Positions 3,001 through 56,840 are shown, counted from the first letter of the stretch. The stretch: DNA of 64,000 nucleotides from an uncultured Candidatus Saccharibacteria bacterium (GCA_964565825.1 CAZMGK010000001.1:2052-66051); one strand, 5' to 3'. Translations and numbers: made by a program. Notes: generated from the sequence alone by a model not told the origin.

Positions 3001-6000
3001 GCCTGTGGTTGGGAGGACTGCTGGAGATGAACAATCAGGAGTCAGGACGCCGTCGATTGAGTCAGTGACTACTATGTATGTGTCAGCTTGGATACCTTGA
3101 CCGGTGGCATTGTCTGCAGTCGTGAAGGTAATAGTTTGAGGACTGGTAGTGGTTAGAAATGTTGCAGTGGTAAATGATCCTGTTGGGACTGTGTTGTCGA
3201 TGATAATAGTCAGTGCGCCACTATCTCCTGATTCATTTCCAGCGAGATCTACCTCACGGACCGTGAGGTTGTTGTGTGTCCCTTCAGACAGGGCTGATGT
3301 GGTACAAGACCAGGCACCAGCTCCGTCTGATGTTGTGGTACAGACAAGTGTTCCGTTATCGTAGACTTTGACTGTCTGTGTGGCACCGGCTCCCGTTCCA
3401 GAGAGTGTTGGTGTGGTGTCAGAAGTGAGATCATCAGTTGATGAGTATCCAGTGTCAGAACCTGCATCGAGGTTTGGGGTACCCGATGGAGCAGAAGGTG
3501 CTGTAGTATCGATGGTGACAGAAAGTGCACCGGATGCCACAGATACATTCCCGGCGACATCTGTTTGTTTCGCAGTGATACTGTAGGCAGCATCTGGAGT
3601 AAGTGCAGTTACGGTCAAGGTGACAGTACTTGCTGCACAGACACCGGTCACACCAGTAGCTACTCCACCGACGAAGAGTTCGACAGTAGATCCGGTGACA
3701 CACGAGAGATCAAAGGTTGGTGTACTATCATTGGTCACATCGTCGTTGGTGAATGTTCCATTGTCGGTTCCAGAGGTCATATCCGGTGCACCTGGAGCAG
3801 CGTCTGCTGTCGTGTCGATGATGATTGCTTTGTTGGCACCAAGAGATCCTGCAGCTCCAGGAGTTGGGAGAGTCAGGTCGGAGTCGATTGTTCCACCGTT
3901 TAAGGCCAGGGAACCTGTACCAGTGTAGTCGAGGTCGGAACTTGTCTCACCTGAGGCGACAGTGTATGTGAAGGTAAGTACTGTGGTACCAGTACCTGAA
4001 GTATAGTTGACGACTGCATCTGTTCCTCCTGTTTCCAGAGTCAGTTGTGGAGTACCGGTGACAGCGACTGGATTAGAGAAAGTAATTTGTATTGAAATGA
4101 CATCGCCTGCATTGTATGAGCCGTCGCCGGTTGATGAGGAGACGTCGGTGACGGTTGTATAGAGGAACCACCCAATAGCGGTACTACTCACGTCAATTGA
4201 GTTTGCTGGCAGAAGAGGAAGTGTGATACCAGAAGAACTATCAAGAGCAGTGTTGTCGGCGATAGAGAGATAATCTCCAGTGAAGGTTGATGCTCCAGTA
4301 AAGGTGATCGTCCGGACTGTCGGAGTATCAGCTGAGGTGATAGCAATGAGGTCATCGGCATCGAGACCATCAAGAACCAGTGAGTTAGCAATAGTGATAT
4401 TACCATTGTCAAAAACAAGTTGACTATTGGTACCATTGTTCGTTGATTCAACCTTAGAGAGTGTGTAGAAAGGAATGGTTGCTGTAGCATCGATGGTGAT
4501 TGCATTAGAGGTAATGGAGACCGTACCGTTGTTGTGTGTAAATGTACCTGCATTAGCAAATGTTGAACCAGAGACAGTGAGTGTCCCAGAGGTTGAAGTC
4601 ATTGCGCCTGAGGCACCAATTGAAAGTGATGGCGTAGACATACTCTGAGCCAATCCAGTGAATGCTCCATCGGTGACGGTCAGTGTATTTGCAACAACGA
4701 GACCACCTCCTAGTTGGAAGGTATCACTGTTACTAGCACTTGCATCATTGATGATGAGGTTGTAGTAGTCGGTGGCACCAAAGTCTTTGATGGTGTGAGT
4801 GGTGGCAGATCCGATTCCGTTACCGTAGTATTCCCAGGTTCCAGAGTTGACGTCGTTGGTGAGAGTGAGGGTGTTACTTCCTTGGAGGCGGACGGTACCG
4901 TCATTACTAAGTGTACCAGAGATAGTAGCATTAAAGCTTGAGAGATCAAGAGTTGAACCAGCATCTATGTCTACAATCGTACCGGTAATATTGAAGTCAT
5001 TGGTCACTACGGTCACCGTTGAATTATTTGTAATCGTAGGGCGGACAGTTCTTGCAACGGAACCAAAGTTCATGTCTTGGGCATCACCTCCGTTAAATGT
5101 TACGGTAAGTTCTGCAGTAAAAGTCATCGTTCCATCAATGATCGCATCTCCCCCAAAACTTGGAGAAAAATTCCCAAATGCTATCGTTCCTCCACTATTT
5201 ACTTGAAGATCTCCTGCATACGTCGATACTGCTCCAGGTGTGAAGGTAGCTCCAGTCATGACAATGAGTTCTTTTGTATCGTTGATGACCGTTGCACCAC
5301 CGGCATCTGGGTAAAGTGTGGTAAGGTCAGCATCTGCATTATTAGCTGTATTGAGTGTCGCAATAGTATGTGCACCACTTTCGAGGATCACTCTATCTTG
5401 GTAAATATCTGTAGTAATGTAGTTCGAAGAACCATTATGTCTAATGAGTGTTGCTCCATCTTCTGTTTCTCCGTCTATGTAGACAGTGACCACAGCAGAA
5501 GCAGTAGGGTTCACATATGACAGAGAGTATGCACCGGTACCACCTGAAGTGGTAGTACATGAGCTTGAGACTCCGTCAACGAGGAGACAGATGGATTTAC
5601 CGTTGGCGATTGGGGTGACTCCTTCGTCGGTGTAGACGCTTCCTGAGATGGTGGAGGCAGCAGCGTCGTAGATGGTGATGCGATGGTTACCAGATTGCGC
5701 AACAAAAAGACGACTGTTTGTAGAATCATACGCGAGATTTTTTGGAGTACTCATACGTGATTGGTTTGTAAGAGCACTAGTATTAGTGAAATTACTTTGC
5801 CCAAGGACATTGATAGCATTTTCTCCATCGGTGATAGTAGCCACATCGTACACAGTGACACGGTGGTTACCAGATTGGGCAACAAAAAGACGATTACCTG
5901 TTGAGTCATAGGCAAGACCTTGTGGACTGTTCATCCCAGCTTGAGTATCAGCCGAAGCAGAGTTTGTAAAATTAGTTTGACCAAGCACAAATGTTGCATT

Positions 6001-8055
6001 TTCTCCGTTAGTAATACCGGTGACATCATAGACTGTGACGCGATGATTGCCGTACTGCGAAACAAAGAGTCTGTTGCCTGTTGCGTCATAAGTAAGACCC
6101 TCTGGACCATTCATCCCAGATTGAGTGTTTCCGGCTCCAGTAGAAAAAAAACTTCCCTGACCAAGTACGAATGTTGCATTTTCTCCATCTGTAATAGCAG
6201 CAACGTCATATACTGTGACACGATGACTACCTGTTTGTCCGACAAAAAGACGATTACCTGTTGAGTCATAGGCAAGACCTGTTGGAGAATTCATTCCGCC
6301 TTGAGTATTAGCAGAGGCGGATGTCGTAAAGAGTGCTTGCCCAAGCACAAATGTTGCATTTTCTCCATCGGTGATAGTAGCCACATCGTACACAGTGACA
6401 CGGTGGTTACCAGATTGGGCAACAAAAAGACGATTACCTGTTGAGTCATAGGCAAGACCTTGTGGACTGTTCATCCCAGCTTGAGTATTTGCCGCTGTAT
6501 TAGACACAAAGTCAGTTTGCCCAAGAACATTATCAGGAACTCTATCAATGAGATTATCGCTCGCATCTAAGTTATACACAAATACTCGATGGTTAGCACT
6601 ATCTGAAACAAACAATCTATGATTAACACTATCTACTTCTTCGTCAACAGGAGTAGAAAAACCAAGTCTGTTCGCAGAATCATGTGACCCACTCTTTGTG
6701 TATGTTGGCACTGGCGCAGATAGATTTGTCCCATCGTACTGACCAAGTGCATCTACTGCATTTTCTCCGTCGGTGATAGTAGTCACATCATAGACAGTGA
6801 GACGACTATTACCATTACCTACTACAAAAAGACGACTATTACTGCTATCATAAGTTAGACCATATGGAGCATTCATCCCTGCTTGAGTGTTTGCCGCAGC
6901 AGTATTGGTGAAGTTACTTTGTCCAAGCACGAATGTTGCATTTTCTCCGTTAGTAATACCGGTGACATCATAGACTGTGACGCGATGATTGCCGTACTGC
7001 GAAACAAAGAGTCTGTTGCCTGTTGCGTCATAAGTAAGACCCTCTGGACCATTCATCCCAGATTGAGTGTTTCCGGCTCCAGTAGAAAAAAAACTTCCCT
7101 GACCAAGTACGAATGTTGCATTTTCTCCATCTGTAATAGCAGCAACGTCATATACTGTGACACGATGACTACCTGTTTGTCCGACAAAAAGACGATTACC
7201 TGTTGAGTCATAGGCAAGACCTGTTGGAGAATTCATTCCGCCTTGAGTATTAGCAGAGGCGGATGTCGTAAAGAGTGCTTGGCCGAGTACATTAATTGCT
7301 GGCTCTCCATCGGTAATTGCCGTGACATCATAGACGATGACGCGATTATTCAAAAAATCGGATACAAAGAGTCTATTATTTATAGAGTCATGCATAATAC
7401 CTCGTGGTGCGCTCATTCCTGATTGAGTGGTAGCAGATGCTGATGTCGTAAAGAGTGCTTGACCAAGGACGTTGATAGCCGGCTCTCCATCAGTGATAGC
7501 AGCGACATCGTAGACCGTGATACGATTGAGGTTTGCAACAAAAAGTCTATTACCTGTTGCGTCGTAAGCGAGACCATATGGAGCACTCATCCCTGCTTGA
7601 GTAACGGAACCACCATTGCTTATAAAGTCTGTTTGACCGAGCACGTTATCAGGAACTCTATCGATCAGGTTATTACTTCCATCTAAGTTATAGACGAGAA
7701 CACGGTTATTATTAACATCTGAAACAAACAATCGATGATTGACTGTATCCATAACTACTCCATACACCTGGTTGAATCCCAGTCTGTTCGGAGAGTCGTT
7801 TGACCCACTTTTTATTATATACCTTGGCACCGGCGCAGATAGATTTGTCCCATCGTACTGCCCCAACAGATCTATCGCATTCGCTCCATTGGAAATAGTT
7901 GCAAATGCAGGTGTTGGTAAAGCAAATGTAATGATGGTAAGTACAAGAATAAGATACGTTTTGTATGATTTCGTATGTGAAAAAATATTCTTTGTAAAAG
8001 ATAAAAAACTATCGACCAGTGTATTACCTTGTGTGTGTTTTGTGTATATAAACAT
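1..8055 (-). CDS. Giant secreted surface protein, partial (C-terminus lies beyond the window start). It has a Sec signal peptide, about 12 NHL-type beta-propeller repeats, then a long run of Ig-like domains (TDxAGNxS motif) and beta-helix-like repeat domains. More than 2680 aa lie in the window.
   Basis: My own reverse-complement translation from the ATG at 8053-8055 (preceded by an in-frame TAA) gives MFIYTKHTQGNTLVDSFLSFTKNIFSHTKSYKTYLILVLTIITFALPTPAFA, then repeated ...GNRLFV.Q.GNHRVTVYDV..ITDGE... (NHL) units. Translation near 3541-3660 gives VTALTPDAAYSITAKQTDVAGNVS in the same frame (low codon coordinate = 1 mod 3) as the start. None of the listed minus-strand ORFs occupies that frame, and all plus-strand ORFs in 1-8000 are short. 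The ORF track omits it because it runs off position 1. Confidence 0.8.
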   Translation of the reverse strand, partial: MFIYTKHTQGNTLVDSFLSFTKNIFSHTKSYKTYLILVLTIITFALPTPAFATISNGANAIDLLGQYDGTNLSAPVPRYIIKSGSNDSPNRLGFNQVYGVVMDTVNHRLFVSDVNNNRVLVYNLDGSNNLIDRVPDNVLGQTDFISNGGSVTQAGMSAPYGLAYDATGNRLFVANLNRITVYDVAAITDGEPAINVLGQALFTTSASATTQSGMSAPRGIMHDSINNRLFVSDFLNNRVIVYDVTAITDGEPAINVLGQALFTTSASANTQGGMNSPTGLAYDSTGNRLFVGQTGSHRVTVYDVAAITDGENATFVLGQGSFFSTGAGNTQSGMNGPEGLTYDATGNRLFVSQYGNHRVTVYDVTGITNGENATFVLGQSNFTNTAAANTQAGMNAPYGLTYDSSNSRLFVVGNGNSRLTVYDVTTITDGENAVDALGQYDGTNLSAPVPTYTKSGSHDSANRLGFSTPVDEEVDSVNHRLFVSDSANHRVFVYNLDASDNLIDRVPDNVLGQTDFVSNTAANTQAGMNSPQGLAYDSTGNRLFVAQSGNHRVTVYDVATITDGENATFVLGQALFTTSASANTQGGMNSPTGLAYDSTGNRLFVGQTGSHRVTVYDVAAITDGENATFVLGQGSFFSTGAGNTQSGMNGPEGLTYDATGNRLFVSQYGNHRVTVYDVTGITNGENATFVLGQTNFTNSASADTQAGMNSPQGLAYDSTGNRLFVAQSGNHRVTVYDVATITDGENAINVLGQSNFTNTSALTNQSRMSTPKNLAYDSTNSRLFVAQSGNHRITIYDAAASTISGSVYTDEGVTPIANGKSICLLVDGVSSSCTTTSGGTGAYSLSYVNPTASAVVTVYIDGETEDGATLIRHNGSSNYITTDIYQDRVILESGAHTIATLNTANNADADLTTLYPDAGGATVINDTKELIVMTGATFTPGAVSTYAGDLQVNSGGTIAFGNFSPSFGGDAIIDGTMTFTAELTVTFNGGDAQDMNFGSVARTVRPTITNNSTVTVVTNDFNITGTIVDIDAGSTLDLSSFNATISGTLSNDGTVRLQGSNTLTLTNDVNSGTWEYYGNGIGSATTHTIKDFGATDYYNLIINDASASNSDTFQLGGGLVVANTLTVTDGAFTGLAQSMSTPSLSIGASGAMTSTSGTLTVSGSTFANAGTFTHNNGTVSITSNAITIDATATIPFYTLSKVESTNNGTNSQLVFDNGNITIANSLVLDGLDADDLIAITSADTPTVRTITFTGASTFTGDYLSIADNTALDSSSGITLPLLPANSIDVSSTAIGWFLYTTVTDVSSSTGDGSYNAGDVISIQITFSNPVAVTGTPQLTLETGGTDAVVNYTSGTGTTVLTFTYTVASGETSSDLDYTGTGSLALNGGTIDSDLTLPTPGAAGSLGANKAIIIDTTADAAPGAPDMTSGTDNGTFTNDDVTNDSTPTFDLSCVTGSTVELFVGGVATGVTGVCAASTVTLTVTALTPDAAYSITAKQTDVAGNVSVASGALSVTIDTTAPSAPSGTPNLDAGSDTGYSSTDDLTSDTTPTLSGTGAGATQTVKVYDNGTLVCTTTSDGAGAWSCTTSALSEGTHNNLTVREVDLAGNESGDSGALTIIIDNTVPTGSFTTATFLTTTSPQTITFTTADNATGQGIQADTYIVVTDSIDGVLTPDCSSPAVLPTTGNTTITCTVDITTANNAEETHVISVTTTDKVGKQVTFNSPNYIIDRLAPTITVYTIDPLTSTPLDFTDPTITFLATDGIAIDHYELNVNGGGFATQTSPYAMTGASTSALNTVILRAYDTAGNIREQTAKFYPIITITAPTVISNTTISDTTINVLMGAPGYIDSVTAVYNGGGSSAITCVPAVGTNPTTTDCTLDDGILTPGGTLTVNGSGDPDGGGPGGSIPGAEATQTYIIETVVPVITPTTPTIFSTASITNATFTITDANGIDSVTFGGTSTHSFTCYDPFPTVATLPTASVSIFCSGTVSATGTLTVDVDDRAGNSATQYSGNFYIDSTDPTLGVPTPTTGTYNSPDPLVAVFTVTDSNSGLVSGDIVITGSNINTSPCVASGTALTPTGNTQFTCTVTFNNSSSGSFEYTATDQSGNSDSSATYTYTFDTTSPTVTSVTSSTANGEYTTGAVISIQIVFSEVVNVTGSPLLTLETGVTDRDATYSSGTGTNTLTFNYTVVAADASGDLDYFATNSLALNGGTIRDVATNNATLTLAAPGAAGSLGANKAIIIDTTADAAPGTPDLDVASDTGNTTDNETNDDTPTFTISCVTGSTVELWVDGSASGYTDVCAGSSSTITITTALTPDGTYTITAKQTDPAGNVSPLSGFVVIDIDTTVDAAPSTPDLDAGSDTADSTGVSTTDNITTDTTPDFTISCVAGSTVDLRNGAITLDSGVCGGGGTITLTATALTPDGAYTLTARQTDVAGNVSATSAGLSVTIDTTAPGSAPGVPDLTNASDTGTTNTDDITEDTTPSFTVSCLGTNLVVLKEGVTLYATGYCSAGTVTLTASPALADGVHVFLAHQEDNAGNASADGTTLSVTIDTTLPGTPVTAPDLDTASDTNITTDNITMDTTPTLSGSCTTGELITLYDGATNVGTFTCAGALYSITSSALADGAHTLTITTTDVAGNESLASPSISVTVDTTAPGAPGVPNLDAGSDSGSSSTDDITSDTT

Positions 8056-8979: not shown

Positions 8980-9038
8980 TTCCCGTTAGAAGTCAGCTAC
9001 TTCATATATCCACACAAGAAAAAAACAAACACGGGAAC
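8980..9038. other. Hairpin-prone element containing CCCGTTAGAAGTCAG, the reverse complement of CTGACTTCTAACGGG that recurs at 56865-56879 and within the leader modules. The stem GTTCCCG...CGGGAAC encloses about 45 nt.
   Basis: Direct string matches and complementarity read from the sequence. Confidence 0.4.
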
Positions 9039-9057
9039 TAAATAATATTTATAAGCA

Positions 9058-9100
9058 CTAATTAAGGACGGAAGTCTCAAGACTTCCTACTTCTAACGGG
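9058..9100 (+). promoter_or_regulatory. Conserved 43-nt leader module, CTAATTAAGGAC-GGAAGTC-tcaa-GACTTCC-TACTTCTAACGGG, ending exactly at the ATG.
   Basis: A near-identical module sits upstream of gatC (56763-56804, minus strand) and a diverged copy upstream of the 46297 gene. The hairpin stem shows compensatory changes: GGAAGTC/GACTTCC here versus GGAAATC/GATTTCC in the other two copies. Confidence 0.6.
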
Positions 9101-9892
9101 ATGGAAACAGAAAAAAATAATCAAGAAGTTCATCACACAAATGAACACTCACCTATTACAAGTAACGGAGAGAAAAATTCATTATCAGTAGGTTCTGCAA
9201 TTATTATTGGAGCAGTAATCATAGCGCTCGCAGTTGTCGGATCAAAGAAATTTTCTAGCTCAAGCATGCGTGATTCATCTGAATCAGTTCTTTCAACCCT
9301 CGATATTAGTGAGAAAAAATTCAAAGCTTGTTACGAAGCAAAAACACCTGAAGCAAAAATCCGCGCTCATATGGCAAGCGCAGAAAAAGCAACCAAACAT
9401 ATTCCAGAAGATCAAGGACGTGGTACACCATACAGTATTGCAATCAACCAGAAGACTGGTATGAAAATAGAAATTGCTGGAGCGTACCCGACTGAAGCAG
9501 TCACCAGTATCATAGATAGTATGTTTGCGGGTACAGCAAAAAGTCAGACTGAAATTGACATTGATCCAGTTACCGGCGAAGACCACTATTTTGGTTCAAA
9601 AGATGCAGAAATTGTAATCATAGAATACTCTGATTTGGAATGTCCATACTGTTCACGTTTTCACACAACGATGCAAGATGTAGTAGAGTCGTATGGTGGA
9701 AAAGTAGCATGGGTCTACAGACACCTCCCTCTTGAGCAACTTCACCCTAATGCATTTGATAAAGCAATCTCTTCGGAATGTATCTATGACATAGGAGGAG
9801 ATGTAAAATTCTGGGAATACATTGATTTACTCTTTAAAAAAAATGAGCCAAAGAAACCAGTGTTTGACCCGATAACAGGAGAGACGAAATAG
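9101..9892 (+). CDS. Membrane-anchored thioredoxin-fold thiol:disulfide oxidoreductase (DsbA/Thioredoxin_4-like) with a CPYC active site. It appears to lack the usual C-terminal half of DsbA-type proteins.
   Basis: N-terminal TM helix (IIIGAVIIALAVVG). Motif DLECPYCSRFH followed by VAWVYRHLPL...HPNA. The ORF stops at 9892 and a terminator hairpin follows at 9931. Confidence 0.6.
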   Translation: METEKNNQEVHHTNEHSPITSNGEKNSLSVGSAIIIGAVIIALAVVGSKKFSSSSMRDSSESVLSTLDISEKKFKACYEAKTPEAKIRAHMASAEKATKHIPEDQGRGTPYSIAINQKTGMKIEIAGAYPTEAVTSIIDSMFAGTAKSQTEIDIDPVTGEDHYFGSKDAEIVIIEYSDLECPYCSRFHTTMQDVVESYGGKVAWVYRHLPLEQLHPNAFDKAISSECIYDIGGDVKFWEYIDLLFKKNEPKKPVFDPITGETK

Positions 9893-20199: not shown

Positions 20200-20520
20200 T
20201 TTTGCCTGCTTGAAAAAGCAGTCCTTTTTGGTTTTCTGTATTGTCATTCCGGACCCCGATCTGGAATCCAGTCTTTTTATAAAGACCCAATTCCTCATTA
20301 CTTTTTAACCGCCAAAAAGTAACCAAAAACGCTCTCGACCAGCACTTTTTTAATTACCCTAGGGCATCCTCTCTTGCTTCGCAATTCACCTTGACCCACG
20401 TAACTCGGACTCACTAAAAATACTAATCCCGACGTAAAGTCGGGACCCCGAACAAAGCTTCGGGGCTCGCTTCACTCAAACAGAGTATTTTTTCCTACGG
20501 AACGAAACCTCTCATTGGTT
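20200..20520. other. Hairpin-rich part of the ~600-nt region between the trmD stop and the rpoB start; candidate structured rpoB leader or unidentified small RNA.
   Basis: Local hairpins CTGCTT-gaaaaa-GCAG, ATTCCGGA-ccccga-TCTGGAAT, CCGAC-gtaaa-GTCGG and CCCCGAA-caaag-CTTCGGGG. No ORF and no convincing match to SRP, RNase P or tmRNA cores. Confidence 0.25.
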
Positions 20521-20626
20521 TGTCTAACGAAAAGAGAGAAATGTGCATGAATACAATTGTATATAAAAAATGACTACCTTTACAAGGTAGTCATATTTAT
20601 ATTTTATTAAAATTAGAAATTGGATA

Positions 20627-21331
20627 TTAGGAATTTTTTTTCCGCTCCTCTATTTTTTTATGATTTCCGGACACAAATACCTCGGGGACTTTGTATTTTT
20701 TGCCTTTATACTCGATGACTTCAGGTCTGGTGTAAAATTCATTTGAAGAAACACGTTCTTCTTCCCGAGAATCAAAATTACCGAGTACTCCTTCTACTTG
20801 CCGAGCCATACAGTCAATCATCACGAGCGCTGGTAATTCCCCACCTGTGAGCACATAGTCTCCGATCGAGACTTCTTCCGCCTTGAGTATATTTTTTACA
20901 CGCACATCTATTCCTTCGTAACGACCAGAGAGAATAACAATGTCGGTATATTTCTTGGTGGTGTTTTTTGCATACACAGTATTAAAGAGCGTACCATGTG
21001 GACCGAGTAAGATTATTTTAGTTTTTGGTTTTGTTGTTTCTTTTTTTGTTGGTTTTCTTTTCTCTATTTTTTTCAGAATCGTATCTACACAATCGAGCAC
21101 TGGTTCAGCACGGATGACCATTCCTGGTCCCCCACCATACGGCCGATCATCAACAATTTTCTGAACATTGCCATCTGGCCAGACTTTGCGATATTTTCCT
21201 TTGACATAGTCACGAGGATTATAAAAAGCCACAGAGATTTTTTTCTCTTTGATTGCCCGCGCCAAAATAGAATCCGTCAGATACGGTTCGCAGATATTTG
21301 CAAATAATGTCACTATATGAAAACGAAGCAT
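20627..21331 (-). CDS. trmD: tRNA (guanine37-N1)-methyltransferase TrmD
   Basis: N-terminus MLRFHIVTLF... and SPOUT-fold motifs (ILLGPHG, GGELPALVMID). Confidence 0.9.
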   Translation of the reverse strand: MLRFHIVTLFANICEPYLTDSILARAIKEKKISVAFYNPRDYVKGKYRKVWPDGNVQKIVDDRPYGGGPGMVIRAEPVLDCVDTILKKIEKRKPTKKETTKPKTKIILLGPHGTLFNTVYAKNTTKKYTDIVILSGRYEGIDVRVKNILKAEEVSIGDYVLTGGELPALVMIDCMARQVEGVLGNFDSREEERVSSNEFYTRPEVIEYKGKKYKVPEVFVSGNHKKIEERKKNS

Positions 21332-21374
21332 GTATTGAATGTACCTTATCTAAATAGATACGTAAAGTAGCATC

Positions 21375-22274
21375 TTACCCATCACTTGGATCATTGTCAT
21401 CAGCTCCATATGTATAACCAGAGTTGTTATGACTCGTATTACATTTGTGATGAATGACTGTACGTGTTTTATACGGAGCGCTCAAACCTTCGGAATCTGT
21501 GACTCCGTAGACAATACTGTAGGTATAAATTTTACATGAATTTGGTCCAGATTGACTCAAAAGTGTCGGTCCAGTTATAAACACAGCTGGGCTAATGTTT
21601 CCATCTTCGGCATCTAAAGCAGTATACCCTGGCTCATTGTATTTATTTGCACCAACACCATTACCAGTAAAAGGGTTGGCACTTGGTGACCAAAATGTAA
21701 ATGGATTTGCCCCATTTAACGTAATAGCCGGTGCAGTGTTTGGTGATGGTGGTGGAGGTATTGGAACTGGAGGTGGAGGAGGATCTTCTGGTGCTGGTGA
21801 TGAGTATGTTGCATTTTGACAATTAATCTGTCCTGGTAAATTTGAGGCAAGAAAACCGGTCACGATATTACTGAACCCTAGACCATCGGTACACCAGTAT
21901 TGGGCTTTTCGTAGTGGAAATACAATAGCCCATTCATTCGTAGATGCTGTACATTGATAATCTGAATTTTGAATACCAACCATGTTACCTAGATTTACCA
22001 GAGCGAGGTCAACAGGAGTTCCCTGACACACAGTTGCAAAAGAATATGGATCATGAGAGAAAAAATCATCAGTAGCACTCGAGCGTAAACTGGAAAGAAC
22101 TAATTTAACATTTGCATCATGAGCTGTGTCTCGAGCATCAACATATGTTGAAAAAACTACATTCGACAAAATTGTTACTATAGAAAGCACAATCAATAAC
22201 TCTATGAGAGTAAAGCCGGTTAATTTTCTTCTCACTCTTTGTATTATCTTTTTCATATCTACAGTATATCGCAT
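21375..22274 (-). CDS. Type IV pilin/pseudopilin with a class III signal peptide and a proline-rich linker.
   Basis: KLTG|FTLIELLIVLSIV prepilin cleavage/methylation motif; PPPPPVPIPPPPSP tract. Sits between the KH gene and trmD where rimM is usually found. Confidence 0.8.
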   Translation of the reverse strand: MRYTVDMKKIIQRVRRKLTGFTLIELLIVLSIVTILSNVVFSTYVDARDTAHDANVKLVLSSLRSSATDDFFSHDPYSFATVCQGTPVDLALVNLGNMVGIQNSDYQCTASTNEWAIVFPLRKAQYWCTDGLGFSNIVTGFLASNLPGQINCQNATYSSPAPEDPPPPPVPIPPPPSPNTAPAITLNGANPFTFWSPSANPFTGNGVGANKYNEPGYTALDAEDGNISPAVFITGPTLLSQSGPNSCKIYTYSIVYGVTDSEGLSAPYKTRTVIHHKCNTSHNNSGYTYGADDNDPSDG

Positions 22275-22354
22275 TTACAAAAGAGTACAAATCAAAAAAC
22301 GATAGCGGTGGGTGTAATTATTACATGAGTGTATAAGCTCTACATTGGCAGGTC

Positions 22355-22408
22355 TCAATCGGTAACAAAAAACTCACCATAGTGGTGAGTTTTTTGTTAC
22401 CGATTGAT
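22355..22408. terminator. Long perfect palindrome (about 23-nt arms, TAG loop) with an inner CTCACCA/TGGTGAG + T6 core; bidirectional terminator-like element between the KH gene and the pilin gene.
   Basis: TCAATCGGTAACAAAAAACTCACCA-tag-TGGTGAGTTTTTTGTTACCGATTGA read directly. Confidence 0.5.
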
Positions 22409-22437
22409 ATAGTACAGCTTCTGATACTGTAATATAT

Positions 22438-22743
22438 TTAAATGTTTTTCAAATCTTCCATCGCAGCATCAACTGAGACACTTGAGGCAGTTTTCATACC
22501 TTCAGGCTCGTTAATTTTGAGATTGATTCGCGCATTGTTTTTCATACCAATGACACGAAGGAGGGTTCGAATTGCTTTCGCAGTATTACCCATTCGGCCA
22601 ATTATCTTACCCATATCATTTGGGTTCACAGTGAGTGTAATGAGGACACCCATTTCATCAACGTTCCGTTCGATTTTTACATCATTTGGATTGTCAACGA
22701 GTGCCTTTACTACATACTCAAGGAATGCTTGATCGTTATGCAT
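22438..22743 (-). CDS. KH-domain RNA-binding protein (KhpA/YlqC-like, UPF0109 family).
   Basis: GKIIGRMGNTAKAIRTLL KH GXXG core; about 100 aa; conserved position next to rpsP and trmD. Confidence 0.8.
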   Translation of the reverse strand: MHNDQAFLEYVVKALVDNPNDVKIERNVDEMGVLITLTVNPNDMGKIIGRMGNTAKAIRTLLRVIGMKNNARINLKINEPEGMKTASSVSVDAAMEDLKNI

Positions 22744-22832
22744 TTTATTCGTTCTCTGTTAGCGCAGCTTCGACAGTTACTGCTTCTCCTAGTATAGCGA
22801 AGTTTTGAAAAGAGTCAAAGGAGGGTGGGGAT

Positions 22833-22950
22833 AAAATACGTGCTTACTATTTTAGAAAACACGAGTCAAGCTCTCATCTCAGTGTGCATATTAAAAAATA
22901 CAAATATGCACACTTCCGATAGTTTTTCTAAAATAGTAAGCACGTATTTT
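22833..22950. repeat. Nested inverted repeats: outer arms of about 28 nt (AAAATACGTGCTTACTATTTTAGAAAAC / GTTTTTCTAAAATAGTAAGCACGTATTTT) enclose an inner palindrome GTGTGCATATT...AATATGCACAC.
   Basis: Read directly. Lies in a roughly 380-bp insert between rpsP and the KH gene, which are normally adjacent. Confidence 0.5.
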
Positions 22951-23078
22951 ATCATGGTGAAAGAAAGGAAAAATTACGACAGTCTTCATAAAACCTCGTG
23001 GTGCTATTTTATTGAGAGAAGGAGTAAAGAGAAAAACACAAGTCTAGGAACTCGAGCAAATTCAACTCTTGTTTGAAC

Positions 23079-23110
23079 AAAAAAAATACCCTTGTGGGTA
23101 TTTTTTTTGT
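23079..23110. terminator. Terminator hairpin AATACCC-ttgt-GGGTATT flanked by A8/T8, downstream of rpsP.
   Basis: Stem plus T-tract on both strands. Confidence 0.6.
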
Positions 23111-23124
23111 TCGCTTCCTCTATT

Positions 23125-23430
23125 TTATTTTTTTAGTTCTTTTCGCTTAACGGTCTTTGATTTTAATGGAAGAACGTTTTTTATCTTTCCTTCAATTACT
23201 TTTTCTTTTACTAAAATGTTGTGCACAGTTTCAGAAACTTGAGCTCCTGTACTGATTGCTTTTCTAATTGCATCTCCATCAAGCACAACTGTCCCCTTTT
23301 TAGCTTCAAGAGATCCAAGCACCTGAGTAAATGAACCTGACTTTTTTACTGCTGTTTTTGAATCAGTCAATACAATACGAAAAGCTGGATCATTTTTGCG
23401 CCCTATTCTTTGTAGTCTTATCTTTAACAT
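23125..23430 (-). CDS. rpsP: 30S ribosomal protein S16
   Basis: MLKIRLQRIGRKNDPAFRIVLTDS... matches the S16 N-terminus. Confidence 0.9.
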   Translation of the reverse strand: MLKIRLQRIGRKNDPAFRIVLTDSKTAVKKSGSFTQVLGSLEAKKGTVVLDGDAIRKAISTGAQVSETVHNILVKEKVIEGKIKNVLPLKSKTVKRKELKK

Positions 23431-23468
23431 ATAAGACTATACTACCGTATTTTAAGAAAAAAATCAAA

Positions 23469-24497
23469 TTATTGCACAACAACCATCCGGTTATCAAAAC
23501 GAGACCAATACCGCACAAAATCTTCTGATAAAATACGCAATCGCCCGTACGTCGGATCATTAACCCAAAACCATGTTTCTGGGCCTATTGTATCATACCC
23601 CACGATCAGAGAGACGTGAGTTGAGGTAAATAAAACCTCCTTCCCTTCTGGGGTGAAATAGACTAAACTCGACTGAGTCATATCGTCATCCTTGTGCCAG
23701 ACAATAACCGGATTACTGGCATCAAGAGCCGTCATAATATCATCGAGGTTCGCGTGTATTTTGGAGTATGTCTCTGGTGCGTATTTTCGTACCATATTTT
23801 CTACTGGTTTCTCATTCACACCCCAGCCGGTAGCACCAAGAAGGCCTAATGGCGCAACATAAACATGTCCTGAAACATCTCCAACAAAACCAGCATCTGG
23901 ATCACCCCACACCAGCCTACCGTTATGAGTATATTTCTTTTTGGGGAGAGCATACCCAATCTGATTCATGATTTCATCTTGGCCAAGTTCTATACGTTTG
24001 TACAGAAGCGCCATTTGAATACTCGCGGCTTCGCAGGATAAACGATATTTTTGCTCAATCAGTGGTATCGGTAATAGCACTCGTTTATCAAACAACTTTG
24101 GGGTGTCAGCACTGTCAACTGGAAAAAATGTTTTTGGGTCAAATGATTCAATTGGTGTACCACACAACATGCTATTTATCAGACGGCGCGTCATAGAACC
24201 GATTGTACCACTTTCGTATATTCCTGCTTTTTTCTGGAAAAGTGAAACTGCTTGTTCTGTTGTTGGACCATACAACCCAAATGCTTGAGGAGAAAGCTTG
24301 GGTAATACACTTTCCGAAGAAAGATGTCTTTGTATTTTCTTTGTATCTTCTATAAAAAGATTTTTACGCCATAGATTATTTTTGACAGATGCATCACAAA
24401 AAACATCTTGCATTGCAAAAACAGGAGTAGGAAAAGTAATTGCACAAATAAGTATTAATAAAAATAAGCGTGAATGCATGTGCACACAGTATAGCAA
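23469..24497 (-). CDS. Secreted protein with a peptidoglycan-binding domain followed by a C39-like (papain-fold) peptidase domain.
   Basis: Signal peptide LFLLILICAITFPTPVFA; PG_binding_1-like segment (GPTTEQAVSLFQKKAGIYESGTIGSMT); YRLSCEAASIQMAL resembling the Peptidase_C39_2 Cys motif. Confidence 0.55.
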   Translation of the reverse strand: MLYCVHMHSRLFLLILICAITFPTPVFAMQDVFCDASVKNNLWRKNLFIEDTKKIQRHLSSESVLPKLSPQAFGLYGPTTEQAVSLFQKKAGIYESGTIGSMTRRLINSMLCGTPIESFDPKTFFPVDSADTPKLFDKRVLLPIPLIEQKYRLSCEAASIQMALLYKRIELGQDEIMNQIGYALPKKKYTHNGRLVWGDPDAGFVGDVSGHVYVAPLGLLGATGWGVNEKPVENMVRKYAPETYSKIHANLDDIMTALDASNPVIVWHKDDDMTQSSLVYFTPEGKEVLFTSTHVSLIVGYDTIGPETWFWVNDPTYGRLRILSEDFVRYWSRFDNRMVVVQ

Positions 24498-40582: not shown

Positions 40583-41413
40583 TTAAAAATCAAAATATAA
40601 TACCGATTTTACAGTCGCCGTGTATTCTGGAGTACATCCTTGGAAACACACGCTAGACTCAACTTCAACTGCATACCGATACGGCACATCCGTCACATCC
40701 GTGAATGATAGAAATCGAAAATATTCTGATGGTGCTGTTGTTCCTGAATAGAGCGAAGCGTCAAACGCAATCAAACCGTTCTCATTATACAACATTGGGT
40801 CCGTAGCATACGCAGCATATCCGATGGTTCCAGAACCAGAAAAAGGGTTGAAATAATAATCGCACTGATTCCCTGATCCGCACGCTGTATCAATAAGAGC
40901 CAGAAAATCACTTGCACTATCACCGTCGGCGACTGCTTCTTTTTGAACAAATTTTACAAACTCAACTCCCTCTTCGGCGAGATACTGGGCTGTTAACTTT
41001 CTTTTAGTCAGATGAATATCTTGCATAGAGCTCGTACTGACCTGTGACAAGGCGGTAAACGCAATCAAGAAAATAAACAATGCAACGAGTGTTTCGATGA
41101 GGGTAAACCCCGACACCAATTTCAGGTGATTGTTCGCACAAGTAGGTGTATATTTATTCTGAGAAAAATTAAGAAAACCAAAAACGTGTTTCTTACTAAT
41201 TGGTGTGGGGGTAAACCCCGACACCAATTTCAGGTGATTGTTCGCACAAGTAGGTGTATATTTATTCTGAGAAAAATTAAGAAAACCAAAAACGTGTTTC
41301 TTACTAATTGGTGTGGGGGTAAACCCGCCTACAAATCTCACTTTATTTTTAGTTTCCACGTGCATGTTACTTTTTTGTATATTTTTTTGTAGAAAACGAA
41401 TAAATGTATTCAT
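40583..41413 (-). CDS. Type IV pilin whose 5' end carries tandem 108-bp (36-aa) modules, each recreating the prepilin cleavage site (…LKLVSG|FTPTPISKKHVFGFLNFSQNKYTPTCANNH…) before the authentic VSG|FTLIETLVALF.
   Basis: Prepilin motif SGFTLIETLVALFIFLIAF. The upstream in-frame repeats come from the DNA repeats at 41096-41330. The true translation start is uncertain. Confidence 0.75.
   Translation of the reverse strand: MNTFIRFLQKNIQKSNMHVETKNKVRFVGGFTPTPISKKHVFGFLNFSQNKYTPTCANNHLKLVSGFTPTPISKKHVFGFLNFSQNKYTPTCANNHLKLVSGFTLIETLVALFIFLIAFTALSQVSTSSMQDIHLTKRKLTAQYLAEEGVEFVKFVQKEAVADGDSASDFLALIDTACGSGNQCDYYFNPFSGSGTIGYAAYATDPMLYNENGLIAFDASLYSGTTAPSEYFRFLSFTDVTDVPYRYAVEVESSVCFQGCTPEYTATVKSVLYFDF
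41096..41330 (-). repeat. 2.1 tandem copies of a 108-bp unit, each beginning with the palindrome GGTGTGGGGG-taaa-CCCCGACACC.
   Basis: GGGTAAACCCCGACACCAAT occurs at 41101 and 41209, with a partial copy at 41317. The units are identical. Confidence 0.85.
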
Positions 41414-41414
41414 A

Positions 41415-42125
41415 TTAATCTTTTGGGGTTCTTTGCATTACTGCTGTTTGAATACTAAAAGGTATTGTGGTGTCCTCAAATGCAATAGTCCCAGCAAGGC
41501 GTATGGTGACCAAGGGTGGTTCTCGATCGGCTGACTCTGCATAGATAACAGAAAATCCTGAATTTGCTGGAATAATTGTTATGGGGCTTGGAGTTAAGCG
41601 ATTGTAATTAGCAACACTTAGAGTTGTAATATCAGGTCCAAGTGTTTTAAAGACTGACCATACACTTGTATCTGGATCTTCTGCAATCACATAGCCAACT
41701 TGGTCATCCGTGACCCCATCTTGACCCGCAACCCCCTCGAATGCCAGAGAAAGACTTGCCTGCACATCTGTCCCCGTAGTACCATCAACACAAGACTTTG
41801 GCTCTTCGATGATTGAGTTTGAATAATCACCACCTACATCACATCTAATATGTCTTCCGACACGGATATTCCTAACCATATCTTCCATAATAGCACTGAG
41901 TGTATCAAACTGTTCTTTTTGAAATTGAGTTATTTTGTATGCTCGATGCATCATCAACAGAGATGATATACCCAAAGATACAATGATCAAAAAAATAGAA
42001 CTTGAAACAAGGAGTTCTATTAAGGTAAACCCTTTTTGAGATTGTCTTTTTTTGTAATAAGAATATGGTGTCATCATGTGAAGTATGTATATAGTATAGG
42101 GTACTTTTTCTCTTTTTACTAACAA
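41415..42125 (-). CDS. Type IV pilin/pseudopilin
   Basis: KG|FTLIELLVSSSIFLIIV prepilin motif. Confidence 0.75.
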   Translation of the reverse strand: MLVKREKVPYTIYILHMMTPYSYYKKRQSQKGFTLIELLVSSSIFLIIVSLGISSLLMMHRAYKITQFQKEQFDTLSAIMEDMVRNIRVGRHIRCDVGGDYSNSIIEEPKSCVDGTTGTDVQASLSLAFEGVAGQDGVTDDQVGYVIAEDPDTSVWSVFKTLGPDITTLSVANYNRLTPSPITIIPANSGFSVIYAESADREPPLVTIRLAGTIAFEDTTIPFSIQTAVMQRTPKD

Positions 42126-42131
42126 AAGAGC

Positions 42132-42866
42132 CTACTGAGATTTCTTGATACTTAAAATACCGACCGGATTGATATTGATAGTATTTTTACCGGGTGAACC
42201 TGGTAAAATAAAAACAAGATCTACGTTACTGGTGACAGGTAAAATAGTATTTGGATTAATAGCATTTACAGACCATTCTGGATCATAGTCTTGGCGCATG
42301 CGTGCGTCCGGGTATGGACGCTTGAAAACAGTAGAGAAAGTTTCTAGATCAGCAGTGTTACATGAATCGTTCGATGGCTCATATCCTCCTTCACATATTT
42401 TATGGAGACGAATATCCTCAAAAAACATTTCTTGCATACATTCGTAGTAGTATGAATTACCACAATCAAGAACTATCCCCCCGGGGTTAATAGCAATCAG
42501 GTCATCATTAAAATTATCATAAAAAATACTCATTTTCTCAGGTGTATTTACATCGAAATATATTCCGTAGGCGGGTTTCCATGCTGGAAGTGGGTATTCT
42601 TTTAACCCTGGATCAATATCGGGTAATTTTCCCGCCAACGCATTGTGCTGTTGTTCTTTGATAAGAAGTGCGACCTCCTGGACTGCAACAGTAAAATCAG
42701 TATTGTTTTTAAATGCGTCAAAGTTAAAAAGCACAATACCAGCCATCATACTAAAAATAGATATCACCACAATCATTTCCATTACCGTAAAACCAGCTTG
42801 CTGTGTAGGTGCAATCACAACATGTTCTCGTGACTTTGACCTATTTTTTTTAAAAAATGCAAACAT
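42132..42866 (-). CDS. Type IV pilin-like protein (minor pilin/pseudopilin)
   Basis: AG|FTVMEMIVVISIF N-terminal methylation-type segment. Confidence 0.65.
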   Translation of the reverse strand: MFAFFKKNRSKSREHVVIAPTQQAGFTVMEMIVVISIFSMMAGIVLFNFDAFKNNTDFTVAVQEVALLIKEQQHNALAGKLPDIDPGLKEYPLPAWKPAYGIYFDVNTPEKMSIFYDNFNDDLIAINPGGIVLDCGNSYYYECMQEMFFEDIRLHKICEGGYEPSNDSCNTADLETFSTVFKRPYPDARMRQDYDPEWSVNAINPNTILPVTSNVDLVFILPGSPGKNTININPVGILSIKKSQ

Positions 42867-42869
42867 ATA

Positions 42870-43679
42870 TTAAAAATGAGTTGTTAGTATTTGAGTAATA
42901 GTGATGGAGAACAGAAATACAAAAAATATCGCGGTACACATGAACGGTCCAAATGGAACATGGCTTTTAAGCGTCGTCTTTTTGCGCAACAGTAACATAC
43001 CAATACCCCAAAGACCACCGATCCAAAAAGACACGAGAACTGCTGCGAAACCACCCGTGATACCAAGCAACCACCCCATTCCAAGAGCAAGCTTTACATC
43101 ACCAAAACCCATCGCTTTTCCACCGGTGACCCACCACAAGAAAAAGAAAGGCAGTGCAATAAGTGGTCCAGCAAGTACTGACCACAAAGATGGGAGGTGG
43201 ATAGCATAGCTCATACCCGTAAATATGAAAAGAGAAAGAAAAGCCAAAATATTAAACAGCCAAACAAATGTGTCTGGAATAATATTGTGATGATAATCGT
43301 ACACAGAAATAACAATCAAGATACAAAAAATGTAGGTAAAAAATATAAGCGGGAAAAAAGACATCCAACTAAAAGAGTACATAAGGGTGGTATCTGGGAG
43401 AAATTTAATAAAGAGAGAAACAAATACAAAACCAGTGATTGCTTCAACAAGTGGATACTGCCACGAAATTTTTGAAGCACAGCCTTTGCACTTACCCCTC
43501 TGACTCAAGAAGCTCGCAATCGGTACGAGCTCGTGCCAAGAAAGTGTCCGACGGCAGGTAAAACAAAAAGAACGTCCGCCAAGACCACGCCCTGTATTGA
43601 ATCTATAAATGACCACATTCAAAAATGAACCGATGACTGTCCCGAGTAAAAAAACAAAAATTCCGTAGATTTCAAACAT
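42870..43679 (-). CDS. pilD: Prepilin peptidase (A24 family, PilD/TadV-like)
   Basis: Polytopic membrane protein with an N-terminal CxxC...CxxC zinc motif (CFTCRRTLS...CKGCASKIS) and conserved A24 blocks. Confidence 0.85.
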   Translation of the reverse strand: MFEIYGIFVFLLGTVIGSFLNVVIYRFNTGRGLGGRSFCFTCRRTLSWHELVPIASFLSQRGKCKGCASKISWQYPLVEAITGFVFVSLFIKFLPDTTLMYSFSWMSFFPLIFFTYIFCILIVISVYDYHHNIIPDTFVWLFNILAFLSLFIFTGMSYAIHLPSLWSVLAGPLIALPFFFLWWVTGGKAMGFGDVKLALGMGWLLGITGGFAAVLVSFWIGGLWGIGMLLLRKKTTLKSHVPFGPFMCTAIFFVFLFSITITQILTTHF

Positions 43680-44432: not shown

Positions 44433-44576
44433 ATACTTTTTTTTAAGGAGAGCACTTTTTTGTTTCAAAAAATGTTTTTTTGTACTAAAAACTTTTTGTT
44501 TTTTCTTTTTTAATCTTTTAACAATACTTCTATCTTTGTTAAAAATTTTGGTGTTTGAATTTGTATGTGGGGTTTT

Positions 44577-44611
44577 TGTTGGGGGAGGCCTACGGCCTCC
44601 GCCAACAAACA
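44577..44611. promoter_or_regulatory. Imperfect 16-nt-arm palindrome TTTGTTGGGGGAGGCC-tac-GGCCTCCGCCAACAAA in the divergent pilin/RNase II-R region; candidate operator.
   Basis: Single C/G mismatch in the G/C run, the same kind of mismatch as in the GGTGTGGGGG/CCCCGACACC palindrome. Confidence 0.35.
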
Positions 44612-44722
44612 CCCCCAAAAACACTACCGAAAAACACATACCAAGAGCACCCTCTTTATGCTACACTATAGTCGTGATTAAACCTCAAAAAACAGAAGCC
44701 GAAATACTCGAACGTCGAGAAT

Positions 44723-46224: not shown

Positions 46225-46253
46225 ACAAAAATGTATGAAATATTATCAAGACA

Positions 46254-46296
46254 TTAATAATAAAACGGAAATCTTTGATTTCCTGTCGTAAGCGGG
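46254..46296 (+). promoter_or_regulatory. Third, diverged copy of the conserved leader module (…ACGGAAATC-tttg-GATTTCC-TGTCGTAAGCGGG-ATG).
   Basis: The 19-nt CGGAAATCTTTGATTTCCT is identical to the gatC copy, and the ATG spacing is the same. Confidence 0.55.
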
Positions 46297-55060: not shown

Positions 55061-56482
55061 CTATTTTAAAACATTTTCAATATCTTTACCAATAGTAAAA
55101 AGATTTTCTTCGTTAAAAGCTGGGCCGATCAACTGAATTCCAAACGGAAGTCCTTTCGTATCCATACCAAGGGGAATAGAAATAGCAGGATCTCCAGTAA
55201 TATCTGCGGGCACAACAAAAATATCTTCCAAATACATAGACACAGGGTCGCCTGATTTTTCACCAAAGGTAAATGCAGTACCTGCAGTTGTCGGTGTCAC
55301 GATAGCATCGACAGTTTCATATACTGCGTTGAGTTCTTTTTTGATTTGTTCTTTCATAAGAAGCGCCTTACCGTAGTAAGCATCATAGTATCCGTGAGAG
55401 AGTACATAGGTTCCAAGGAGAATTCTTCGGCGAACTTCTTTTCCAAAACCAGTACCACGAGTTTTACTATATACATCAAGGAGTGATGGGTGTTCTTCAC
55501 TGTATCCATAGCGAATACCATCAAAACGAGCGAGGTTGGATGATGCTTCTGCTGGTTGGATAATATAGTACACAGGAAGCGAATAAGAAATGTAATCAAG
55601 ATTAATCGGTACAATTTCATATCCTTCATTTTTAAGCATTTCTATTGTTTGTTTAAATTTCTCCAATACTTCAGCCTGTACTCCCCCACTTTCAAAAAAG
55701 TGATACGGTACACCGATTTTTTTCTTGAGATCTTTTTTGTAGGTTGTACGCATATCAATAGGAACAGAAGTACTATCGTGTGTGTCGTATGTCGCGAGAA
55801 GATTGAAAGCAATTTCTGCATCAGTCACAGTCTTGGTCATTGGACCGATCTGATCAAGTGAACTCGCAAGCGCAACAAGTCCAAAACGAGACATGGTCCC
55901 ATATGTTGGTTTGAGCCCAACAAGATTACAATATGATGCTGGCTGACGAATAGATCCACCAGTGTCAGAACCAAGCGACAGAAGTGCTCCATCCATTGCC
56001 ATAGCTGCTGCTGGCCCACCTGATGAACCCCCAGGAACACGAGTAACGTCGTATGGGTTTTTTGTGTTGCCAAAATAGCTCGTTTCAGTCGAAGATCCCA
56101 TAGCAAATTCATCCATGTTCGTACGGCCAATAATCACTGCACCTTGTTTTTTGAGATCTGATACAAGCGTACTATCGTATGTACCAACATAATTTTCGAG
56201 TATCTTTGACCCACACGCTGACACGTGTCCAGTGTAGAGCATATTGTCTTTGATCGCTGTAGGTATTCCAGTAAGAGGTGTTGCAATACCATCATCTATC
56301 ATTTTTTGCGCAGTCGCGATTTGCGCATCGAGGTCTGAAAATATCTCCACATATGCGTTAATCTCACTATTTCGTGCACGAGCTTGAGTCACATACATAT
56401 CAACAAGTGCGCGGACCGTGAGCTCTTTATTGACGAGGAGTGCGTGAGCACTCTCTATTGTTAGATCTTTCAGATTAATCAT
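55061..56482 (-). CDS. gatA: Glutamyl-tRNA(Gln) amidotransferase subunit A
   Basis: Amidase signature GGSSGGPAAAMA...; 473 aa. Confidence 0.95.
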   Translation of the reverse strand: MINLKDLTIESAHALLVNKELTVRALVDMYVTQARARNSEINAYVEIFSDLDAQIATAQKMIDDGIATPLTGIPTAIKDNMLYTGHVSACGSKILENYVGTYDSTLVSDLKKQGAVIIGRTNMDEFAMGSSTETSYFGNTKNPYDVTRVPGGSSGGPAAAMAMDGALLSLGSDTGGSIRQPASYCNLVGLKPTYGTMSRFGLVALASSLDQIGPMTKTVTDAEIAFNLLATYDTHDSTSVPIDMRTTYKKDLKKKIGVPYHFFESGGVQAEVLEKFKQTIEMLKNEGYEIVPINLDYISYSLPVYYIIQPAEASSNLARFDGIRYGYSEEHPSLLDVYSKTRGTGFGKEVRRRILLGTYVLSHGYYDAYYGKALLMKEQIKKELNAVYETVDAIVTPTTAGTAFTFGEKSGDPVSMYLEDIFVVPADITGDPAISIPLGMDTKGLPFGIQLIGPAFNEENLFTIGKDIENVLK

Positions 56483-56762
56483 TGTTGATAATTTTATTTA
56501 CTTCTAAATAGCCATTTTTTTCTTTCGGGAAATTTGCTTTGATGCGAGATTGCGTATCAAAATTACTATCATGTGCAACATCTTCTCGGGTAACATTTTG
56601 CACAACAGGTGTTACTTTTTCACCAGTTTCAATGTGCGCATTTTCTATTTGTTTAATATAGCCCAAAATAGTATTCATATCATTGGACAATGCCCCTGCT
56701 TCTTCGTCTGTGACAGAAAGCCGTGCAAGCCCTGCGAGTTTTTGTATGTCTTCGGTGGTCAT
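56475..56762 (-). CDS. gatC: Glutamyl-tRNA(Gln) amidotransferase subunit C
   Basis: 95 aa, ...LAGLARLSVTDEEA...; overlaps the gatA start. Confidence 0.85.
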   Translation of the reverse strand: MTTEDIQKLAGLARLSVTDEEAGALSNDMNTILGYIKQIENAHIETGEKVTPVVQNVTREDVAHDSNFDTQSRIKANFPKEKNGYLEVNKIINND

Positions 56763-56804: not shown

Positions 56805-56840
56805 CTGGTAATAAAATAATAAACTTTTGTGCATGATGTA

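Follow-up and report, generated by a model that had tools for sequence, protein, structure and literature searches.

The palindrome-rich spacer between rpsP and the gene for a KH-domain protein in an uncultured CPR bacterium is best explained, though by a modest balance of probability, as a combination of a hotspot for accessory genes, two ordinary terminators and one resident long inverted repeat, which template switching would have shaped and which would at most serve as an insulator. The original prediction was that small MITE-like palindromic insertions had remodelled a conserved ribosomal operon. The remodelling stands, as the spacer is 381 nt long (about 380 bp had been given) where about 106 nt is usual, and a pilin gene lies between the KH gene and trmD; the MITE mechanism is not supported.

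The sample is a 64-kb window, the whole stretch of DNA that was analysed, in which rpsP, the KH gene, a pilin-like gene and trmD are all on the minus strand (Table 1). With the KH protein as query, 80 genome loci and 80 metagenome loci were recovered, their source being Candidatus Nomurabacteria/Paceibacteria, Patescibacteria (CPR), and by this affinity the window organism is a member of the Nomurabacteria/Paceibacteria group of Patescibacteria. The comparison set comprised some 170 related loci (171 in the count of the leader motif) with 716 kb of relatives' sequence; a KH-based scan of JGI metagenomes revealed no close relatives, the best match being 84%. The KH protein is 100% identical in the sister species represented by loci L001 and L004. 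Gene order rpsP-KH-trmD is kept throughout the related loci and rpoB is usually next. The spacer between rpsP and the KH gene occupies 22744-23124 in the window, and in relatives its median length is 106 nt (range 72-203; n = 153 with short gaps), while that between the KH gene and trmD has a median of 66 nt (n = 118 loci). Assembly errors can yield perfect long inverted repeats, and so a chimeric fold-back has to be considered as the origin of the palindromes. Two independent Logan assemblies from different runs, L002 and L003, reproduce the whole window arrangement at 99.99-100% identity, and a diverged homologue of the longest palindrome is present in another species; the palindromes are thus not an assembly artefact, the chance of which is negligible.

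Table 1. Positions, strands and basis of assignment of the features of the rpsP-KH-trmD region of the window
Feature	Position	Strand	Basis
rpsP (ribosomal protein S16, 101 aa)	23125..23430	-	Pfam PF00886; orthologue precedes KH in almost every related locus
rpsP intrinsic terminator, 17-bp perfect stem	arms 23075-23091 / 23096-23112	-	palindrome search, folding
Orphan non-coding stretch, rpsP terminator to I1	22954..23074		four relatives carry a pilin gene there
Long hairpin I1, 30-bp perfect outer stem, 64-nt interior, 124 bp	22830..22953, arms 22830-22859 / 22924-22953		palindrome search, folding
C-rich linker CCCCACCCTCC (gene strand) between hairpin and -35 hexamer	22819..22829	-	near-relative alignment
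KH promoter TTGACT, 16 nt, TATACT	22791..22818	-	promoter scan; alignment of relatives
KH 5' leader motif GCAGU-N-GUCG-N-GCUGC	22764..22783	-	conserved in relatives; invariant in near-relative alignment
KhpA-type KH-domain RNA-binding protein, 101 aa	22438..22743	-	Pfam PF13083, 74 bits
KH intrinsic terminator, 25-nt perfect arms, 3-nt loop	22355-22379 / 22383-22407	-	palindrome search, folding
Novel spacer, KH terminator to pilin promoter	22280..22354		replaces 17 nt of L001; no match elsewhere
18-nt island = L001 trmD promoter region	22262..22279	-	18/18 identity to L001 6397-6414, E 8e-4
Type IV pilin-like gene, 293 aa from Met7	21375..22256	-	Pfam N_methyl, PF16403
trmD	20627..21331	-	Pfam PF01746
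trmD terminator, 11-bp stem + T-tract	20570..20594	-	terminator scan, folding

The palindromes at 23075-23112 and 22355-22407 are, from their form and alignment, ordinary intrinsic terminators inherited from an ancestor common to the sister species. Shortly after a stop codon, each forms a stable stem-loop that contains G+C and runs into a U-tract. A terminator belonging to rpsP itself had been anticipated at 23079-23110, and it is present with slightly wider limits and 17-nt arms; the palindrome downstream of the KH gene, for which 23-nt arms at 22355-22408 had been given, is also present but with 25-nt arms that end at 22407. The proposal that small insertions gave rise to these two palindromes is not borne out, as both are inherited terminators whose cores align with those of sister species. 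The rpsP terminator, built of an A-tract, an ATACCC core and a T-tract, is bidirectional in form (-22.5 kcal/mol, z -8), and in alignment its core, ATACCC..GGGTAT, is homologous to the terminator of L001 and L007. A terminator-like hairpin follows rpsP in 10 of the 11 loci whose KH protein is at least 90% identical, a set in which the window strain and the L001 species are both represented by repeat assemblies. The KH terminator has an ancestral 14-bp stem (22366-22379 / 22383-22396) with its core, AAAAAACTCACC..GGTGAGTTTTTT, conserved in L001, L004, L005, L006 and L008, and an 11-bp extension, with the new arm at 22355-22365, that is strain-specific; the folding energy is -39.2 kcal/mol in the window versus -22 in L001. 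About ten further perfect A/T-tract palindromes, making about a dozen in all, are scattered over the window, with 3-4-nt loops, a G+C core between A-tract and T-tract, and arms of up to 28 nt. Shuffled sequences are expected to yield 0 arm matches for the palindromes, and folding z-scores range from -8 to -12.5. Location just after stop codons, a G+C core between an A-tract and a T-tract, preservation of the cores in sister species and resemblance to the ten or so other palindromes of the window are all as in bidirectional Rho-independent terminators. The stems differ from these in being unusually long and perfect (17 and 25 bp) and, in the KH case, in having an 11-bp extension beyond the A/T tracts. 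A conserved long hairpin, of about 85 nt, is found right after the KH stop codon in five species (L025 1360-1443, L031 4330-4409, L059 4339-4420, L068 4319-4405 and L085 918-1001); its arms are AAAAAAGAGCGAATACAAAA, its inner stem covaries (CAAGCA/TGCTTG, GAGCAA/TTGCTC, TAAGCA/TGCTTA) and it has no Rfam match.

The promoter and leader of the KH gene are also older than the hairpin that now lies upstream of them. TTGAC and GCTAT.C are invariant in an alignment of eight near relatives. The family form of the leader motif, GCAGY-N-GUCG-N-RCUGC, occurs in 127 of the 171 related loci, and in those from L007 to L175 it is situated about 100 nt upstream of the KH gene; its stem is invariant, and the family-wide alignment is gappy with no covariation visible there. 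The motif is possibly an autoregulatory or processing site. Between hairpin and -35 hexamer, the C-rich linker takes the place of the T-rich upstream element of other relatives. The same linker is present in locus L089, the one that has a homologue of the hairpin, while L171 has it as a remnant without a hairpin. As the terminator after rpsP and the promoter and leader of the KH gene are conserved in relatives, they predate the insert, and so the idea that the rpsP terminator is a new feature of this locus does not hold.

The operon rpsP-(ylqC/khpA)-rimM-trmD-rplS is known from E. coli and Firmicutes, and the present cluster resembles it in that rpsP, a KhpA-type KH gene and trmD are neighbors and keep their order. 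It is unlike it in that rimM is missing, rpoB follows trmD, a -10-like hexamer and leader motif precede the KH gene of relatives (138 of 171 loci for the hexamer) and a terminator-like hairpin follows it (98 of 118). With such hexamers before and hairpins after the KH gene, the genes of the cluster look like separate transcription units. The absence of rimM from the window, as had been reported, is borne out by Pfam scans: the RimM domain (PF01782) was not found among the scanned ORFs of the window, the small and medium ones being compared to Pfam at E<=0.001 and the larger ones at E<=1e-5, with 7 of those scanned lacking any Pfam match. The accompanying notion, that the pilin gene occupies the slot of rimM, is a different matter. 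None of the approximately 170 related loci has rimM between rpsP/KH and trmD, and rimM is nearly absent from CPR (PMC12641178, PMC6744442), so that there is no rimM slot at this locus. The rpsP-khpA-trmD cluster of this CPR family never contained rimM. Comparison with relatives thus upholds a remodelled locus, but not one that lost rimM or acquired its terminators and KH promoter with the insert, for rimM is absent from this position in all the related loci and the other elements are already in relatives.

The third palindrome, I1, is of a different kind. The nested palindromes noticed earlier in the spacer exist, with the arms being 30 nt at 22830-22953 instead of 28 nt at 22833-22950. I1 folds with -59.5 kcal/mol (z -11.6), and its interior contains a perfect 12-bp hairpin (22881-22892 / 22903-22914) that is specific to the window and not present in L089. 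There is no U-tract, the sequence that follows being CCCCACCC, and under the usual rules I1 would not be expected to terminate transcription. L089, on a contig (GCA_040384425.1) reached through a search with the pilin, has a pilin-KH spacer that aligns with window positions 22972-22367 at 79% identity. Its counterpart of I1, at 1146-1264, is syntenic and ends at the shared C-rich linker 11 nt before the shared -35 hexamer. In the stem, 7 of the 30 pairs are changed on both sides and still paired, and one GC has become GU. No pair is broken among the inner 21, while four outer pairs are unpaired in L089, the outer part of whose stem has a small internal loop. Both-side changes at 7 of 30 pairs were reached by at most 2 of 500 shuffles and slid controls gave 0-2, the comparison being of two sequences only. 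The interior has a conserved block, AGAAAAACUAUCGGAAG; a 17-nt interior block (AGAAAAACTATCGGAAG) is 100% identical in the window and L089, whereas the arms are about 70% identical. Since a second species has the homologue at the same place, I1 is older than the window strain. Among about 16 near relatives, 2 have it, one in each of two species clusters (the window, L001, L004 and L174; L008, L089, L170 and L171), and some 14 others lack the hairpin; such a distribution requires several losses or lateral exchange. The right arm has a suggestive but not significant similarity to hairpin-less relatives. As far as comparison of these genomes goes, I1 is a long inverted repeat that is resident and non-coding, is present once and has a counterpart in one related species.

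Could I1, and perhaps the extended KH palindrome too, be a MITE-like or foldback element whose insertion split the operon? MITEs and REP-type intergenic palindromic repeats include Correia, ERIC, RUP and REP/BIME. I1 resembles them in being small (124 bp) and non-coding, in having long terminal inverted repeats (30 bp, perfect) and in lying in an intergenic region beside a promoter, and its presence among near relatives is sporadic. Two related members of a subfamily inserted at one target could also mimic the covariation of the arms. Unlike such elements, I1 is single-copy wherever searched. There is no other copy of the 30-nt arms in the 64-kb window or in the 716 kb of related loci, a 20-mer from an arm has no match in three public collections of genome, metagenome and viral contigs, and a covariance model of I1 matches only the window and L089 in the 716 kb. 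When the insert and spacers were compared by short-word blastn to the window and all fetched loci, only chance 11-18-mers were found, and blastn with the 260-nt novel stretch gave nothing in phages or plasmids. A further homologue of the hairpin is absent from contigs P0005, P0006, P0008, P0133, P0138 and L088, the last reached through the pilin homologue P0004. No target-site duplication is evident, the flanks on the gene strand, ..TTTCACCAT before and CCCCACCCT after I1 (ending in CACCAT and beginning with CCCCAC, respectively), having no direct repeat. Relatives do not show a clean empty site; their whole spacer differs, and L171 keeps only the remnant of the linker. Nor is a partner transposase apparent, with no transposase domain in the 44 ORFs scanned against Pfam (42 of these 44 being from the 50-ORF gene set of the window). 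The sole homologue occupies the very same site between homologous flanks and has compensated arm changes, and the terminators and promoter are older than the insert. On the grounds for refutation that came with the original prediction, the MITE reading fails within the sequence searched, and insertion of a MITE-like element is accordingly unlikely.

The window does have two copies of one small element bounded by terminal inverted repeats, which is a point in favor of the MITE reading. These copies, of about 120 nt, are at 8981-9101 on the plus strand and 56762-56879 on the minus strand, each directly upstream of a gene and in equal relative orientation, the genes being for a DsbA-like thioredoxin (9101..9892) and gatC (56762..56475). 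The element looks like a 5' leader instead: a 13-bp closing helix, UCCCGUUAGAAGU/ACUUCUAACGGGA, has its 3' strand abutting the AUG, and the 3' domain is conserved with one compensatory pair. It is a candidate leader RNA that would sequester the start codon. It has no Rfam match and is absent from all fetched loci. Separately, the window has a G+C-rich palindromic motif, CTCCCTCTCC..GGAGAGGGTTGGGGTGAGG, at both 58079-58126 and 63435-63482, and similar sequences are found in other species, in L032 (5119-5234) and L066 (949-1039); it is possibly a REP-like dispersed repeat of the group.

Several other identities for I1 were considered. For a protein-coding insert, the plus strand has an 83-aa ORF without a Pfam match, but on hand translation its L089 counterpart stops after 24 codons, and a 32-aa ORF on the gene strand sits in DNA missing from L089. 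An attC, dif or retron identity was rejected on reading the sequence, which has neither R'/R'' core sites nor a 28-bp dif-like core, nor an RT gene. Rfam 15 has no match at the gathering threshold in the whole window, and at E<=10 the region 20300-23500 yields only sub-threshold generic hairpins; a scan for tRNA and tmRNA found none. An invertible segment, with the inverted repeats flanking a phase-variable switch for neighboring genes, has some appeal as a 30-bp inverted repeat surrounds a short segment with a TTGACT hexamer, and pilin loci are often phase-variable in other bacteria. An interior of 64 bp is very short for site-specific inversion, Pfam scans reveal no recombinase gene nearby, the hexamer has no usable -10 at the correct spacing and the orientation of the interior is the same in the window, L002, L003 and L089, which makes inversion highly improbable.

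All three palindromes are perfect in the window strain and shorter or imperfect in relatives. The downstream arm of the KH terminator has gained 11 nt that exactly complement conserved upstream sequence, and the gain begins exactly at the end of the homology to L001 and L008, a place at which 11 complementary bases would be met by chance with a probability of about 4^-11. The inner hairpin of I1 has a right half that can be aligned to L089 and a left half that is new and is the exact reverse complement of the right. Perfect stems and multibase compensatory changes can both result from template switching in the absence of selection (PMC8794818), and quasi-palindrome mutations arising in this way are the subject of the Ripley model (PMC8794818, PMC7202029). 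The similarity to these mutations is in the conversion of the short or imperfect palindromes of relatives to longer and perfect ones, in the new sequence being the exact reverse complement of the opposite arm, and in the multibase 'compensatory' differences between the window species and L089, with the caveat that the likeness is here drawn from comparison of few genomes. We infer that the symmetry of I1, and the strain-specific lengthening of the KH terminator and inner hairpin stems, fit switching of template during replication. Intrastrand switching would both make the pairing perfect and keep it so, amounting to quasi-palindrome correction, and the same process would account for the 11 bp added to the KH terminator as well as for the 12-bp hairpin newly formed inside I1.

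This origin bears on whether I1 is a selected functional element, either a structured RNA (an insulator processed by RNase III, a stabilizer of 3' ends or an sRNA) or an inverted repeat acting as DNA on the KH promoter. The seven compensatory pairs, together with a GC to GU change that leaves pairing only on the gene strand, speak for such an element. As compensatory changes can come from template switching without selection (PMC8794818), the seven pairs alone are no proof of function, and with just two hairpin sequences, selection on structure and mutational homogenization are inseparable. The full conservation of the 17-nt block next to arms that are about 70% identical favors selection, as does the fixed place 11 nt upstream of the -35 hexamer in both species, with the common linker. 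A gene for RNase III is present in the window (52096-52794, from Pfam), and L087, L025, L031, L059, L068 and L085 are further cases of a long hairpin located between a terminator and the promoter that follows. Against this, presence in only 2 of about 16 near relatives makes the element dispensable, its location after a terminator and upstream of a conserved promoter makes its transcription uncertain, neither a promoter of its own nor its inner hairpin is conserved, and there is no Rfam family. A selected function is on balance rather unlikely. For the preferred reading, a resident repeat shaped by template switching, the most that might be proposed is that I1, as a second barrier, insulates the KH promoter from transcription of the upstream gene, perhaps by blocking read-through or by being cut by RNase III. 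The palindrome of L087 (1400-1580; AACCATTGGTACAACTT..AAGTTGTACCAATGGTT) lies between a pilin terminator and the trmD promoter and is followed by a tandem TATTTAC repeat.

The remaining component of the explanation is the propensity of the locus to acquire genes. Accessory genes, in tracts of 0.4-3.5 kb, are present at the junction of the KH gene and trmD in about 20 of 78 genome loci, and genes lie between rpsP and KH in 4 of 77. The inserted ORFs that were read at related loci encode unrelated accessory proteins. Both junctions are, on this comparison, recurrent landing sites for accessory genes. The presence of a type IV pilin gene between KH and trmD, as originally described, is confirmed by an N_methyl domain (PF07963, 25.8 bits versus a cut-off of 21.2) and a class III prepilin motif, KLTGFTLIELLIV; its ORF is 22274..21375 but the likely true start is at 22256. 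The protein has the prepilin signal KLTG/FTLIELLIV (the slash marks the cleavage position), a Pro-rich linker and a C-terminal Ig-like domain (PF16403, 28 bits). It is like the type IV pilins of CPR and Gram-positive bacteria (PMC6744442) in its G/FTLIE prepilin signal and N-terminal hydrophobic helix, and a prepilin peptidase (PF06750 + PF01478; 42870..43679) and three N_methyl proteins are encoded 20 kb away. It is unlike them in its Pro-rich linker with Ig-like surface domain, and in belonging to a very small family that is tied to the rpsP-KH-trmD locus and not to the pilus cluster. That cluster is at 40583-43679.

Only four homologues of the pilin are in the databases, all at the rpsP-KH-trmD locus, and the pilin is a member of a rare, fast-evolving family found almost only there. 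Homologues lie between rpsP and KH in L008, L009, L088 and L089 and directly upstream of trmD in L087. Identity is 75% within species clusters and about 50-57% between them. As these identities follow the trmD/KH clusters but the slot does not, the pilin gene has been relocated or exchanged between variants of the locus; what appears as relocation could instead be recombination between locus variants. In the window strain the pilin gene sits downstream of the KH module, directly behind the former -10 element of trmD, and about 120 nt of orphan DNA is present where four relatives carry the pilin. The 18-nt island has its -10, TATACT, at 22263-22268, 6 nt before the pilin ATG, and the same 6 nt separate TATACT from trmD in relatives. 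The orphan stretch has no similarity in the window, related loci, phages or plasmids, homology to L089 beginning only at 22972, and tblastn with three pilins for a former pilin in it gave noise only. A 303-aa gene upstream of rpsP in L176 (P0131) was considered as a further pilin and is not one. A terminator scan of the 43-nt gap between pilin gene and trmD (21332-21374) found none, so trmD is probably co-transcribed with the pilin gene, the two forming a single transcript that is probably leaderless.

Beyond the cluster, a divergent gene for an RNB-domain RNase is immediately upstream of rpsP in all near relatives, with a PGA_cap/S11 gene beyond it wherever the contig reaches. Within 23469-48657 of the window these two genes are at 44404-48657, 21 kb from rpsP, and between them and rpsP are housekeeping genes (secDF, bacA, folD, ftsW, efp, ligA and an addA-like gene) and pilus genes. 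Judged from gene order, this is a larger rearrangement, broken immediately upstream of rpsP. A 108-nt repeat with a GGTGTGGGGGTAAACCCCGACACC hairpin occurs as two tandem pairs, at 41098-41313 and 44189-44404; one pair is upstream of a pilin-like gene, and the second borders directly on the beginning of the RNB gene, where the rearrangement has its boundary. In the near relative L170, a diversity-generating retroelement (bAvd and reverse transcriptase) lies between trmD and rpoB (6419-7840). At the other end of the window, 1-8055 is a giant ORF of more than 2685 aa that runs off the end; at 5650-7650 its coding sequence contains about ten tandem repeats of 180 nt.

The main value of the analysis is in the correction of a tempting misreading. 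This CPR cluster has no rimM, has its own terminators and promoters, and has hotspots for accessory genes, and so the pilin gene there is not a replacement of rimM. From the perspective of mutational mechanism, the locus is of modest positive value as a clean case from nature in which the palindromes of a single strain are perfect and exceed those of relatives in length, their breakpoints being consistent with template switching; it also offers an orphan hairpin close to a promoter, with compensated changes, as a testable candidate for an insulator. More speculatively, and at rather low probability, I1 may be a structural element under selection in a few Nomurabacteria, an insulator cleaved by RNase III or a regulator of the khpA promoter, and template switching may be at work in this CPR lineage in the production of long, perfect hairpins. 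If so, terminators and promoter-proximal structures would here have been caught in the act of forming.
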